A DNA stretch of 34,239 nt from a virus (taxonomy: Duplodnaviria > Heunggongvirae > Uroviricota > Caudoviricetes), in the IMG/VR virus record IMGVR_UViG_2663762996_000010, positions 1 through 34,239 of that record; one strand, written 5' to 3'. The position numbers are program-made. Numbering within the stretch: the first letter of the stretch is position 1; each line of letters starts with the position of its first letter. Of this stretch, positions 6,990 to 12,900 are shown one piece after another.

Positions 6990-9900
6990 ACTGGACCGCC
7001 ACCGGGGACTCGAACCTCGCACACTCAACTTAAAGGGTTGACGCTCTTTCCTGATGAACTGGTGACGGTTGGTGGCCCTTGCTGGATTTGAACCAGCGAC
7101 CTGGCGATTATGAGTCGCTCGCTCTCACCACTGAGCTAAAGGGCCGGGCGCAGGATAATAACGTTACGAAATCAATGTTGCAAGCATTCAAAAATCACCT
7201 GGTTAAAAATCACCCTTAGCTCCTCCACCAGCGCATTCACCATGTCTATCCGAGATAAGTGGCACAAAAAAACCCGCTTGTGGGCGGGTTTTGTTTGCTT
7301 TTGCCATCACGTACAAAATCGGCAAAATATCAGATTTGCATGAAATATATGCCTTTCAATCTACTTTTGCAACACTTTGCTTTGAAAATGCCGCCTTTTG
7401 TTTTGAACGTGTTCTCATTACAAACAATAAAGCCTCACTATCCAGTCGTTGAAAAATGTGTTTCATTGCAACCCAGTGACGAGTAAATGTTTTGGACCAG
7501 TTTTTAGTTGCCACTCCCGCCAGTAATGCCAGCTCCTGGTATTCATAACCTTCCCCACCAAAAAGTTCTGCTTTTACTGCCTGCGCCGCCAGCCAGATTA
7601 ATTTTTTCAGGCGTTCCTGCGTTTTCCCTGCAATTTTTCTGGTACCGGATTGAGTATTAAATTCATTCCACGCCCACTGTGTTATCGCGATCTGATATTC
7701 CCAACAAATACTCTCGCCGTAACACCACAACAACCAGGCTTTATGATGCTCTTCAAGAGACAGCAAAGCCCGCCGCCATGATGATGTCGAAAACTCAACC
7801 GGGCTGACCAGGGCAATTGATGAGCCATTCGCCAGTGATTGTTTTCCCGGGATTGGTGGATTATCCCGCGTTATCATTTTTCCAGTCACTTCATCGCGGT
7901 ACCGGATTTTTTTTCGCCTGTAACGCCCTGTATCGAACATGGCATTCTCCTGCCAGGCTTCAAGCTGACCTTTTGTTGCCCCACTCAAATCAGCGGTGGC
8001 GATAATGAGCTGCTCACGCACAAACTGTAAATACTGGTTATTCATGCGCACTCCAGTTCTGTGATTTTTATCCCCAGCCGCCCACCAGGAACGAGCTGAC
8101 CGCGCACAATATTGATTTCATCAAACTGCTCGTCGTCTATGAGTAGTCCGGCATGCGTCAGCGCATCCAGTGGTGCTTTCAGGATATTGTCCAGGTCACG
8201 ACGGCGCTTATCCGGTGGCTCTGCAATAATCTTTATCGCCAGCCTTCCGGACAGGTTTAATTTCAACCGCTGCTGGCGAACAATTAGCGCCACATCATGG
8301 CGATAACGCTTTCCGGCCTCCGAGATGAAATACGTATTGCCATGACGTCGCCAGTAGGTATTCACCGTCGGCGGGTAAGGCAAAACAAATTCTATGCGTT
8401 CAGTCATTCATGCTTTCCACTTCAGGACACCCGAATTTCTCGCGTGCATTAAAAAACGAATCAGCAACAACAGCTGGCTGCCGTGTTTTTCTTCAAAATC
8501 TTTTACCCCGGCGTGCAGTTCGTTATGACATTTACGGCACAGCGGAATAACAAACAAATCATCAGCCTTTGTTCCCATCCCTCCCAGTCCATGACCAATG
8601 ATGTGATGCGGATCATCTGCCTGATTACCGCACGTCATGCATTTCTGCGTTTTTACCCAACGCGTGTATACAGGCATCTCTTCCCGTTGTGGTTTCTGGC
8701 GCTGGAGATACTGAGCCGGTGACTCCGGATCAACGGCAATGCTGACCACCGTCTTTTCCTGTGGCGGGTTTTGCTGGTGGGCATGAGGCAACGGCGCAAG
8801 ATTTTTTGTGCGCTGCTTCAGTATGCTGGTGGCGGTCTGCTCTCCCGGTACGATGTCGCTTTCGCGGTACAAGGAGCGGATTTTTTCCGCACGTAACCCC
8901 AGAGAACGACGTAATACTGCCTCCGGAAGCGCGTCCGCCACCTGATTGCAGACCGCCCACCAGGATAATTCAGCCAGCGACAATTCCCGCTCCTGCGTGC
9001 CATTCATTGCATGGCGTATGACGTCAATCATCCATGCTGACAGGTTTTGATGAGCAAGTTGCCCGAGTGATTCGGATGTCTGGTCACGCAACTGGTTGTC
9101 GCAGTGCCAGCACAACACCATCGCGCCGGTACCGTAACGATGTATGACGATTTCACTGTGATGATAGTCACCATGAGGCCACTGGCAGGATTTGACATGA
9201 CGCAACAGCCAGTCAGACAGTGCCCCAGCGCCGCCAGCAGCACGAATCACCCGCTCATCGCTGAAAAATGGCAGTAATGATTTATCCTCCGCCAGCGGCT
9301 GGCGAACGGCAGGGACGACTCCGGACGGCAGACCGCGCATGCTTTTCGGTTCAGGCTCCACCAGCACTCGAGGGTTATGAAATACTTGCATGGATTCACG
9401 GCCCGGCCTAAGGACCACCAGCCCGAGTTCCGGTACCAGAACAGGTCGAAGTAATATCCGCACGTTACCTCCAGATCCGTTGCTGGTATGTGCGGGATGG
9501 GCGCGGTGGGCGTTCGGAATAAGGGAGCCTGACATAGATTATCCAGTGACGATAATCGAGGCTGAGGGCTTTCTTAATCTCGTATCCGCGTCTGCGATAG
9601 TTATGAATTAGCCATTCGGCCTGTTCTTCAGTACATGGGTCATGCTGGAACCAGTCAGATTTGAAAGTGCGGGAACGCCGCCCGTGCCTGCTGGCAAAGA
9701 CGGCAGAATCATCAGAATTGTGTAATTTGGTATCGTGCGCCATCGGTTGTCTCTGCTGGCGCAGCAGGTGCCAGTTGTTCAGGCTGGCGTGCGAATTGTA
9801 AACCAGAATGCCAGGAAAAAACAAAACCCGCCGAAGCGGGTATGCTAAAACAAACTGAAAGTAATATACCGGACTTGTAAAGGAACGATAGAATAATTAT

Positions 9901-12900
9901 TGGATTAAACCCTGACTCAATCCAGATTTTATAGGCAACAACTACGGACTAATCATCACAGTCATGTTTGATAGGCTTAGTCCACATTGGGTGAGGGTTT
10001 ACGGCGTTTTCACTAATAATTTATCGTCCAAGCTATACACTACTGCCCTGTTTTAACGAAGTTTTTAAAGGAAACAACTGCCTGATAGGGGTTTGGTTGA
10101 CAGCCAAACATATTATCGCAAAAAGGCTTGATGAAAATTCTTGAGGATCCATCTTCATTTGGCATTTTACTCACTTGATAAGCGAGGAATGGACTATTTG
10201 GAGAGGGATTATAAGTGGAAATTAGCGTGTCTGTCGCCGTTTGAATTTTCCATGAGGAATTATTAGCCAACCAGAATTGCGCTCGTTTCCAATAAAAGTC
10301 ACATTGCTTTTCATCATTACATGTTAGTGGCTTCATTGCTTCTGCTTTCAACGCTGGATCGACCTTTGCTGCACACCCTCCCAACATTACTGTTGCAATC
10401 ATTACACCTGCGACTAAAACAAGTTTCTTCATCTCCCTGCCCCATCAATAAAAGTTCGGTTCTCTAATAACTAGAGTTAATCAACGGAAAAAACGCCGAA
10501 GCGGGTTAAGTGCGGGTGCGTTGAGGATGCCTGACACATCAGAGGTGGCGAGGGATTTCTCCCCCGCCAGGTCTCTTACTCCTCAGGTTCGTAAGCTGTG
10601 AAGACAGCGACCTCCGTCTGGCCGGTTCGGATTCGTACCTCGCAGAGGTCTTTCCTCGTTACCAGTGCCGTCACTATGACGGTTAAACAGATGACGATCA
10701 GGGCGATTAACATCGCCTTTTGCTGCTTCATAGCCTGCTTCTCCTTGCCTTTCGGCACGTAAGAGGCTAACCTAGATTTGCCGTTCATAGATTGAGCCTC
10801 AGATTAATGTTAAGCGTCTTGCCGGACGCGTAATGTTAACTGGGGCTTTTCTCTATCTGCCTTTGGTGTTCATGCCTGAGGCAGATAGCCTCAAGCACCC
10901 GCAGCAATTCTACTTAAGTTAGATAAGCTTTTCTATGGTATTCTCTCAGCGTCCCGTAAATACAGTCTCGGCTCATCATTTTTATCACAGGTGCGAGGAA
11001 AATATATAGCGCCCTCCATCAAGCATAACGAAATACATTTTCCATTCATCGCCATTCCTCAATTTAATACGAAGACTTTCCCCGCAAGTGTATTTATTAA
11101 ACAACTGTTCCGATGTGCTAGTAAGAGGTATTTTTACCGTTATTACAACTACTGCCCCACCATTTAACTCTCGAAGTTCAGCATCCGCATCCACAAAAGA
11201 TGAATAAATGTTATGATCTGGGTAATCAACAATTAACTGCATATTCACTCCTTAAATATAGCAACTAAAACAAACAACGATTTAACAGTAGGAATTGTTT
11301 TTATAACATATGAACGGTGCAAGATCTATCCAGATGAAGCCTCCCCTCACACCCCCGTCTCATTACATGCATTTACTATCTCACCGTAAAACATCCTCCA
11401 CGCTTATCAGTCCGTTTCGCTTCAGGTAGTCCATCGCCTTCTCCGGTAATTTGCAGTCCGGCTTGGCTTTTTTCAGTTGGCTGACCAGTCGTTTAACCCA
11501 CATTGTTAATTCGCTAACCTGATTGCCGGAAGCTGGTGGGTTGTCGGCTTTACCCAGAATGACAGCACTGCAGGCCTCTTTGAGTACCCAATCAACAGCA
11601 TCTTTCCATGCTCCTGTTTCGACTGGTGGATTCTCACGCTTTACCTGTTCATAAAAGCGCACGGCTTTAACCAGTCCTTCTGATGTCAGTGGCACAGGCG
11701 GGGCAGTGAATAACGCCTGAATTTCATAGCTCGGCCTGTCGTTGCAATCCTCTTTTGTCGGTACATATTTCCAGTCACCAACCCACGGCTCCCCCTGTGA
11801 GTCCGTAATGCCTTTTTTCACGTAGCGATATCGCCATGCAACTGGTTTTGCCTGCCCTGCCGTTTCATGTCCTTCCTGATAATTAATCTCGCTCATTCAT
11901 CGCCCCACTCATCACAATATGCTTCGACCGGAGTTTTTCCTGCTTCGTAGTCATAACGCCATGCTTCAGCATCAGCGGCACTTCCACCGCGTAACTCTGC
12001 ATAGTCCATTAACAGTTCATGCCATTCTTCAAAACTGACGTTGTATTTAGTTGAACCAAAATCAGCCATTTTGTTCTTCCTCCTCATCTTTTATTTCGTG
12101 ATATGAGTAATTGCAGTAGTTAAAGAAAATTTCTTTTGCTTCGTCCTGTATTTCATCTGGTGTCGCACCATCATCCACTTCGAATACATCCTCAAAATCT
12201 CCACCAGCTATTCCCGTTTCAATAATTATTCTGAACTTTCGCATTTCATTACCGCCCTTTCGGGCGGCCTCCTGATGTTCTGAGGGTGCAGAAATCCCTC
12301 CGGTTAAGGATTAAATTTTATTTACAACACTAAATTTAATTATTCAGGCGCGCGAATCTGTTCCGCACAATGCAACAATGCTTCTGTCACTTCCTTAAGC
12401 GTTACGGTATCGGCATCATCCAGTCCTGCAACTTTTGCGTGCCTGGCAAACGCCGCGCAAAGGTCGTTAAACGCCACCGCCCGTACATCAGCTAGGAAAG
12501 CGTTAGCAGCAGCCAATTCCTGGTAGTCAATCCTGCTCACTGCGCCGCCTCCTGAAAATTCCCCTGATAGAAAGCCAGTACACGCTGCATAACTTCACTA
12601 TTCCGGCACTCGCGACAGATTATGTTCAGACGCCTGTCATAGCGGCGTATTTCTCCGTCTGGTAACGACCAGATAAGGTCCGGATCAACCACAGATGTTT
12701 TTTTCTTCAGCTTTGCCCTTGAGAGTTTTTTGCGGGCATTTTGCCAGTCCTTACGAGCCTGTTCAGACGGGAATAACCCGTAACCAGAGTTGTATACATC
12801 GCCACTGGCAACCAGCTCTCTGGCAAGAACGCTCATCAGATATCTTGTTGCCCCAGTTTTAGCTTCCAGTTGTCGTAACGTCTCGCGCCCACTCTGGCGT

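Follow-up and report, generated by a model that had tools for sequence, protein, structure and literature searches.

A hok/sok locus between two AT-rich accessory modules in an Escherichia coli lambdoid prophage, with a lipoprotein gene behind a damaged hok terminator

The viral sequence IMGVR_UViG_2663762996_000010, analysed here over its whole length of 34,239 nt and referred to as the window, represents a lambdoid prophage of E. coli, of the Qin/Rac type. Its early-right and late genes are encoded on the minus strand. Near-identical prophages are present in complete E. coli genomes. In the nin-equivalent region, which separates the replication genes from Q, three minus-strand open reading frames (ORFs) follow one another, encoding a 130-aa (amino acid) lipoprotein precursor (10040-10432), a Hok toxin (10576-10731) and a small orphan protein (10985-11248), which RefSeq annotates in the near-identical prophages as 'hypothetical protein', 'HokD' and 'hypothetical protein', respectively. 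An earlier note on this DNA had located the three genes and their nin-type setting correctly and described them as an AT-rich moron island at 9830-11380. What we find is ordinary prophage mosaicism, in which three modules assort independently, plus one modest new detail at the hok terminator.

Module borders were derived from presence/absence variants, by aligning the window to related phages without one or the other gene. In phage Evi, position 9841 is joined straight to 10488 and no lipoprotein gene is present, and in strain MIN10 and phage 689R5 an unrelated 104 bp stands in place of 10918-11380 and the small ORF is absent. These junctions delimit a lipoprotein module (9842-10487, minus strand) with a guanine-plus-cytosine (GC) fraction of 0.39, a shared hok/sok core (10488-10917, GC 0.52) and a small-ORF module (10918-11380, minus strand, GC 0.38), so that the whole interval spans 9842-11380, nearly the extent previously drawn. 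With the flanking genes at 0.50-0.54 and the window at 0.49, two of the three genes are AT-rich, and hok has the composition of its flanks. The description as an AT-rich moron island is thus apt for the lipoprotein cassette and the small-ORF module, both of which deviate in base composition and are present or absent among collinear phages, but not for hok. As for a transcription unit of their own, a terminator follows the lipoprotein gene, and no consensus coding-strand promoter was found upstream of either AT-rich gene.

The three modules differ widely in frequency. Among 5426 complete E. coli genomes, sequence similar to the interval, mostly hok-like, is found in 4751, the lipoprotein gene in 255, the small-ORF module in 42 and all three together, in the window's arrangement, in 16; 239 of the 255 lipoprotein-bearing genomes are without the small ORF, and thousands of hok loci carry neither flanking gene. 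Because the modules come and go separately in these counts, the reading of the interval as one joint cassette, which the earlier note had put forward, fails. Across the 1.8-kb query, the 16 triple loci and the window share 99.5-99.8% identity, suggesting a single lineage. In IMG/VR, 59 loci bear the lipoprotein gene, and the roughly 54 of E. coli type share the order hok, 147 bp, lipoprotein gene, 92-aa gene and DUF968, with the small ORF in only 7 of them; of 50,697 phage records, one contains the small ORF. Within E. coli, the lipoprotein gene and the small ORF are each found only beside hok.

The junction between hok and the lipoprotein gene carries a conserved lesion. In hok-only phages, the 3′ fbi element is followed by a strong hairpin, AACCCGC-UUCG-GCGGGUUUUGUUUUUU, which folds at −14.7 kcal/mol in the Evi copy. 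The corresponding copy in the window (10488-10506, minus strand) is crippled, reading AACCCGC-UUCG-GCG-UUUUUU after fbi, that is, CCCGC-UUCG-GCG and then U6, a hairpin without its 3′ arm that folds at −4.5 kcal/mol (z 0.01). An intact intrinsic terminator, ACCCGC-UUCG-GCGGGU plus a U-run (9815-9841, hairpin 9826-9841, minus strand), was found by terminator scan at the end of the lipoprotein cassette; it has the same sequence as the terminator directly after hok in Evi and folds at −13.1 kcal/mol (z −3.9), with 0 of 200 shuffled sequences folding as well. The cassette is flanked, then, by two copies of the terminator sequence, the intact one lying 660 nt beyond the disabled hok-proximal one. 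A terminator right after fbi, which bounds the full-length hok mRNA of ~400 nt, is absent, and the locus is atypical in this respect alone.

All 57 lipoprotein-bearing loci of E. coli type show exactly this lesion. Of 114 hok loci sampled from viral contigs, the hairpin is intact in 94 (mean −12.4 kcal/mol), and the cleanly terminator-less loci are exactly those in which a secreted-protein gene starts 55-79 nt downstream, six of them of the 933W type with a YgiW-like gene and three with the present lipoprotein. A promoter scan of the minus strand at 10433-10500 revealed no convincing sigma-70 promoter. Because the hok-proximal hairpin is lost and no recognisable promoter lies between, the lipoprotein gene is likely to be co-transcribed with the hok mRNA. 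The junction sequence is identical nearly everywhere, so the constant adjacency of hok and the lipoprotein gene points to one ancestral insertion. In prophage Tritos, the hok terminator is retained, and the morons downstream have clear TTGACA promoters. In 933W (L073, 1109-1573, minus strand), hokW is followed, without a terminator after fbi, by L0136, encoding a 114-aa YgiW/YdeI-like protein with a signal peptide, and a terminator comes only after L0136, an independent case of secreted cargo inside the hok transcription unit. In one related prophage (L021, 5516-7001), fbi and the terminator remnant are separated precisely by an insertion of ~1.3 kb, probably an insertion sequence (IS) element.

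The core at 10488-10917 is a complete hok/sok type I toxin-antitoxin (TA) locus. The 51-aa membrane toxin Hok (10576-10731, minus strand; HokD in RefSeq) belongs to the Hok/Gef family, as had been recognised from the sequence, matching Pfam PF01848 at E=3e-23 with 81.6 bits, where the cut-off is 22, and Hok/Mok matches phrog_251 (MokW-like) at E=7.7e-33. Overlapping hok in frame is the 70-codon leader ORF mok (10576-10788, minus strand), at the same position as the annotated mokW of 933W. The 5′ leader of the hok mRNA (10726-10900, minus strand) matches Rfam RF01794 at full length, with 111.7 bits against a gathering score of 59 over model positions 1-157, and contains the tac element at 10889-10900. 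Both the minimum-free-energy and the centroid fold of 10900 to 10485 pair the 5′ end GGGUGCUUGAGG with the fbi element CCUCAACGCACCC (10514-10526, minus strand), at −167 kcal/mol and a z of −7.07. A promoter-like site found by promoter scan, TAGAAA and TAGAAT with a 17-nt spacer (10907-10935, minus strand), predicts a transcript start at about G10900; its −10 hexamer lies inside the conserved hok module and its −35 hexamer inside the small-ORF module. The antisense RNA Sok (10780-10850, plus strand) was placed by homology, with coordinates carried over from the annotated sokW, and its putative promoter hexamers TTGCCT (10746-10751) and TAACCT (10769-10774) were read from the sequence; the position of Sok and both hexamers coincide with the 933W annotation when a constant offset of 9003 is applied.

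The hok mRNA is a stable transcript, silenced by pairing of its 5′ and 3′ ends and by the unstable Sok antisense RNA, and when Sok transcription stops, upon prophage induction or loss of the element, Hok is made and the inner membrane is depolarised. The module studied here is 94% identical at the nucleotide level to hokW-sokW of 933W and 97.9% identical to the HokD module of Tritos. hokW-sokW is a verified type I TA locus: uninduced lysogens contain its mRNA as well as its Sok, and the hokW toxin made after induction aids lysis and doubles phage release (PMC8621323). In the LF82 lysogen, no prophage gene is transcribed more strongly than the Tritos HokD gene, whose level exceeds the prophage background 3792-fold (PMC9928086). 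Toxicity of Hok and its neutralisation by Sok have been shown for the 94%-identical hokW-sokW (PMC8621323) and may hold for the present pair. At another lipoprotein-bearing IMG/VR locus (L043, 6224-6785), two tandem hok copies lie upstream of the lipoprotein gene.

The lipoprotein gene (10040-10432, minus strand) is preceded by a leader (10433-10487, minus strand) whose GGGGCAGGGAG motif before the ATG is conserved in the homologues of other phages (L061-L064), and is followed by an AT-rich 3′ untranslated part (9842-10039, minus strand) that varies by indels, one locus (L052) being without 9925-9993 and another (L060) without 9849-9948, and that has no Rfam match. Its product begins with a signal peptide made up of MKK, a hydrophobic core and the lipobox L-G-G-C20, and, of 87 diverse family members, at least 90% have the lipobox cysteine and four match the Pfam LPAM_1 site. 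The mature domain bears four further cysteines, C38, C44, C105 and C111, invariant in close and distant homologues, so that the lipobox and four-cysteine pattern first noticed in the window is a family trait. Residue +2 is Ala21 and not Asp, and outer-membrane sorting is predicted under the +2 rule. The ratio of non-synonymous to synonymous substitution rates (dN/dS) of 0.10-0.25 indicates purifying selection on a real gene.

Its structural model (AF2) has a predicted local distance difference test score (pLDDT) of 84, above 90 in the mature part, and adopts a helix-grip-like fold, with the Francisella virulence lipoprotein Flpp3 as best fold match, followed by Bet v 1/SRPBCC-like ligand-binding folds. 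None of the fold matches listed is a known exclusion protein, a search of BFVD with the model gave no match at E≤0.001, and a PDB sequence-profile search gave no significant solved structure within the family. By sequence, no informative family was found for the lipoprotein in Pfam (E≤0.01), NCBIfam, PADLOC or PHROGs, its match phrog_16082 being of unknown function, and the PADLOC-DB component models returned 0 families for six proteins scanned, the three island proteins included. DUF6491 (PF20101) matches 10 of the 87 family members weakly (best E 0.0048) and does not match the window protein, and it may be distantly related to the family. No housekeeping family could be assigned to the protein, no Pfam, NCBIfam or PADLOC model matching it, and a literature search by RefSeq accessions found nothing. 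A spanin (Rz1 or u-spanin) acting with Hok in lysis was considered and rejected, as the protein has a folded 110-aa domain, is not proline-rich and has no C-terminal membrane segment; the same idea is further weakened by the near-identical PEC148 prophage, which is annotated with holin, lysozyme and lysis-protein genes of its own.

Close homologues (66-85% identity) are few and confined to Enterobacterales, and the family as a whole is large, a profile search of 1.84 billion cluster representatives yielding 1141 members at E≤1e-3, of which 532 reach E≤1e-10; some members have a C-terminal PDZ domain. In lambdoid phages of Pantoea type, homologues of 76-85% identity lie between the tail assembly gene I and the host-specificity gene J, with a terminator of their own after them, or, in other phages of this type, immediately upstream of I and paired with a second lipoprotein gene; their GC is 0.36-0.41, against 0.46-0.51 for the phages. 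The second lipoprotein genes at two of these loci (L061, 7374-7784; L062, 7332-7679) follow the first, each start codon overlapping the stop codon of the first gene, encode unrelated proteins of 136 and 115 aa, respectively, and show no Pfam match. An unrelated siphovirus has a 31%-identical member in its tail cluster, another member stands beside a tail-gene remnant and yet another among transposases and TA genes. A scan of the genome collection with the alignment of close homologues found nothing, and when more distant members were used, seven betaproteobacterial loci were the only finds, in high-GC neighbourhoods with no clear conserved context; the diverse alignments are too variable to seed locus searches. 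The lipoprotein gene is a mobile accessory gene.

On the other side of hok, the small ORF (10985-11242, minus strand) most likely encodes 85 aa and not the 87 aa first assigned to it: the ATG at 11242 sits 5 nt after an AAGGAG Shine-Dalgarno sequence (11248-11253), the GTG at 11248, to which the frame extends, overlaps that sequence, and the RefSeq call is also 85 aa. The dN/dS was 0.97 against a copy 96.5% identical (93% at the protein level) and 0.27 against a 72%-identical homologue, with third-position changes dominating in the latter; a non-coding artefact was rejected on this second value, which indicates a real gene. Homologues occur only in E. coli, some with frameshifted C-termini. 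The protein is cytoplasmic, having no hydrophobic segment, and it matched nothing in Pfam, NCBIfam, PADLOC or PHROGs and nothing significant in a PDB sequence-profile search; its AF2 model is of low confidence (pLDDT 61) and predicted to be β-rich. Homology and structure prediction, suggested earlier for both flanking genes, has thus been informative for the lipoprotein, which falls in a large unnamed family with a helix-grip-like fold, but not for the 85-aa protein, which has no family and no confident model.

Further out, the interval is preceded by the replication organiser (13003-14079, minus strand) and then by small nin-type genes. On its downstream side, it had been taken to abut the DUF968 gene, but a 92-aa gene of phrog_1212 (9465-9743, minus strand) separates it from DUF968/YdfU (8408-9535, minus strand), after which come RusA (8042-8407, minus strand) and Q (7356-8051, minus strand), with tRNAs beyond. 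The 92-aa gene holds the position of rem in prophages of the Rac/Qin type; its identity as Rem was ruled out, as it gave no alignment to Rem, and one phage record calls it 'toxin to Rem'. Downstream of Q are three minus-strand tRNA genes (6839-7145), and two further tRNA matches near the other prophage end (26749-26835, minus strand; 27827-27899, plus strand) may mark the attachment site. At 16600-22500, a unit of ~1.9-2.0 kb occurs in three direct copies of 100% identity (17577, 19589 and 21454; also 16617, 20279 and 22163), containing DicF three times (16694, 20356 and 22240), isrK twice (18777 and 20642), the C4 antisense RNA twice (18878 and 20743), a 217-aa ORF twice and a 167/170-aa ORF three times. 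These repeats are either a tandem amplification of an isrK-C4-antirepressor-like/DicF region or an assembly artefact.

Taking the locus as a whole, we favour, at a probability of roughly 60%, a mosaic joint around a conserved hok/sok locus with two unrelated AT-rich morons, one on each side, the lipoprotein gene most likely riding on the hok transcript. The gene would have entered at the hok terminator and, in a lysogen, would most likely form the 3′ part of an extended hok mRNA of ~1.07 kb, running from 10900 to ~9826, driven by the constitutively active hok promoter and ending at the intact terminator copy. The protein would then acquire its lipid anchor at Cys20 and move to the outer membrane, its mature, disulfide-stabilised helix-grip-like domain facing the periplasm, where, with low certainty, we prefer a function in modifying the lysogen envelope, either by exclusion at the receptor or injection step or by protection against envelope stress. 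The 85-aa gene is, in this reading, a rare orphan moron in its own right, placed immediately 5′ of the hok promoter and with no functional tie to the other two. Of all this, the identities of the genes, the borders of the modules, the damage to the terminator and the frequencies are observed, and co-transcription, outer-membrane location and any protective role are inferences.

Several points weigh against this reading. That hok and the lipoprotein gene are always adjacent in loci of E. coli type goes back to one ancestral insertion rather than repeated selection for the pairing, lipoprotein homologues in other genera occur without hok, and apparently chromosomal members exist in Betaproteobacteria. 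A weak or non-sigma-70 promoter may lie in the conserved leader, and the CGC-UUCG-GCG-U6 remnant might still terminate transcription partially. The extended 3′ end might disturb the 3′-processing that activates the hok mRNA, so the arrangement could be neutral or even disabling for hok. Finally, no homology links the lipoprotein to phage exclusion: PADLOC gave no match, there is no real match to Cor, and the fold matches are generic.

How far the three genes depend on one another could be judged differently. They might form one lysogen-protective cassette, with Hok, the lipoprotein and the 85-aa protein cooperating in abortive infection. In its favour, the genes are adjacent on the same strand, both flanking genes occur in E. 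coli only beside hok, and the lipoprotein gene is present in 16 of the 42 small-ORF genomes, which is above chance. Each module is nevertheless present or absent alone, with sharp borders, as in the 239 lipoprotein-bearing genomes without the small ORF and the thousands of hok loci with neither neighbour; the 16 triple loci suggest a single lineage, and homologues in other phages do without hok, which together render such a cassette highly improbable. A self-contained lipoprotein moron is a possible, if somewhat doubtful, alternative: the gene would have a promoter of its own, independent of hok transcription, and the terminator lesion would be an incidental recombination scar. The conservation of the 40-50 nt leader with homologues in quite different contexts speaks for it, as does the homologue at L062, which an intact copy of this terminator immediately precedes and which must therefore use its leader or operon read-through, and so does the definition of morons as independent transcription units in a passage of PMC3594210. 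Against it, no sigma-70-like coding-strand site was found at 10433-10500, the candidate hexamers inspected were mis-spaced or matched at no more than four of six positions, and the lesion, if only a scar, is strictly conserved.

Two further readings concern what the lipoprotein does. It may tentatively be seen as a receptor-masking or injection-blocking exclusion factor like Cor or Llp, held in the inner leaflet of the outer membrane and binding a receptor or entry component from the periplasm, so that the lysogen would resist certain phages. Such a role would suit a small, exported, disulfide-stabilised prophage lipoprotein with moron features, whose expression in lysogens via the hok promoter is probable, and it is argued mainly because homologues recur beside tail-tip genes, the close ones between I and J or beside I and a distant one in another tail cluster; known exclusion genes, among them cor, llp and HK97 gp15, are often found in tail-gene surroundings. 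To this extent superinfection exclusion is plausible from the sequence, but similarity to Cor, Llp or exclusion-annotated families was found in neither sequence nor fold, and the betaproteobacterial chromosomal members and PDZ fusions suggest a more general periplasmic role. The likeness to exclusion lipoproteins drawn in the earlier note consequently holds for the generic architecture, but not beyond it, the match to Cor covering the signal peptide only and no exclusion protein emerging as a fold match. A function as a lysogen envelope fitness or virulence factor like Bor, Flpp3 or YgiW, defending against serum, antimicrobial peptides or further envelope stress, or binding a hydrophobic ligand, and conferring no phage resistance, would agree with Flpp3 as best fold match ahead of Bet v 1/SRPBCC-like folds, with the YgiW/YdeI-like periplasmic stress protein of 933W as the only other cargo at the same hok site and with the spread of the family outside phages. 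The protein matches neither Pfam Lambda_Bor nor DUF3568, however, and the tail-cluster positions of the homologues would be left unexplained, so we consider this reading rather unlikely.

With hok/sok a textbook system and prophage morons common, the value of the locus is modest, and what is new is the terminator-less insertion of exported-protein genes into the hok unit and a large unnamed lipoprotein family associated with phages and mobile elements, with more than 1000 clusters at 50% identity and no Pfam model, which may represent an envelope-acting factor of lysogenic conversion or exclusion. Two secreted-protein genes in place of the hok terminator suggest a simple route to accessory-gene expression in lysogeny, and the cargo site bears on how very high 'hok' signals in prophage transcriptomes are to be read. 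A bolder proposal, which we regard as unlikely, is that hok/sok serves as an expression platform, exported envelope-protein genes being spliced between fbi and the terminator to ride on an abundant, stable transcript, and that the lipoprotein represents a new outer-membrane helix-grip family of exclusion or envelope protection. The platform would then have two cargoes, the present lipoprotein and, independently, the YgiW-like protein of 933W; the lipoprotein family would span E. coli prophages at the hok site and the tail-tip clusters of other phages; and the longer 3′ end could also retune the 3′-processing that arms hok.

Among known lipoproteins, Cor (phi80, N15, HK022 and T1) and Llp (T5) are outer-membrane lipoproteins that block FhuA. 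Judged by sequence features, the present protein shares with them a small size and phage origin, probable synthesis in lysogens, disulfides and, for its homologues, proximity to tail-tip and host-specificity genes. The mature domain of Cor and Llp measures ~60 aa, against ~110 aa here, and the sole PHROG match to Cor, phrog_1119 at E=0.0071, is confined to the signal peptide (residues 1-44) and contains 0 significant stretches, and none of the remaining exclusion-annotated PHROG families matched the lipoprotein. Bor of lambda is a serum-resistance outer-membrane lipoprotein moron expressed in lysogens (also cited in a passage of PMC7067206). Both Bor and the present protein are predicted outer-membrane lipoprotein morons of lambdoid prophages, at different genome positions, and Pfam Lambda_Bor matched neither the protein at E≤0.01 nor any of the 87 family members at E≤0.1. 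To Flpp3 (DUF3568) of Francisella and the N-terminal domain of BamC, identity is 11-13% with no sequence-profile relation, and the four-cysteine pattern is specific to the present family. HK97 gp15, located in the tail gene cluster, is a further point of reference. It is named as a moron-encoded exclusion protein in a passage of PMC3594210. With classical lambdoid morons, the lipoprotein cassette shares its presence or absence in collinear genomes, its lower GC and its 3′ terminator, but it differs in having no recognisable promoter of its own, and the disabled upstream terminator indicates the use of the neighbour's promoter.

The closest known system is hokW-sokW of 933W, also represented by prophage Sp5 of strain Sakai, and, beyond it, hokD of Qin and hok/sok of plasmid R1; the mok ORF, the Sok promoter hexamers and the tac and fbi elements all recur in the present locus. 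The Hok peptide is identical to that of hokW through residue 44, and the last 7 residues differ. The promoter hexamers of Sok and SokW are identical, but the first ~15 nt of Sok (10780-10795, against 1777-1792 of L073) and the target around the mok start differ from SokW and its target at about half of the positions, making cross-neutralisation between the two antisense RNAs doubtful. The −35 region of the hok promoter is here replaced by the small-ORF module. On the other side of the locus, the two systems are alike in carrying a secreted-protein gene right after fbi with no terminator between, the cargo being a lipoprotein here and a YgiW-like protein in 933W.

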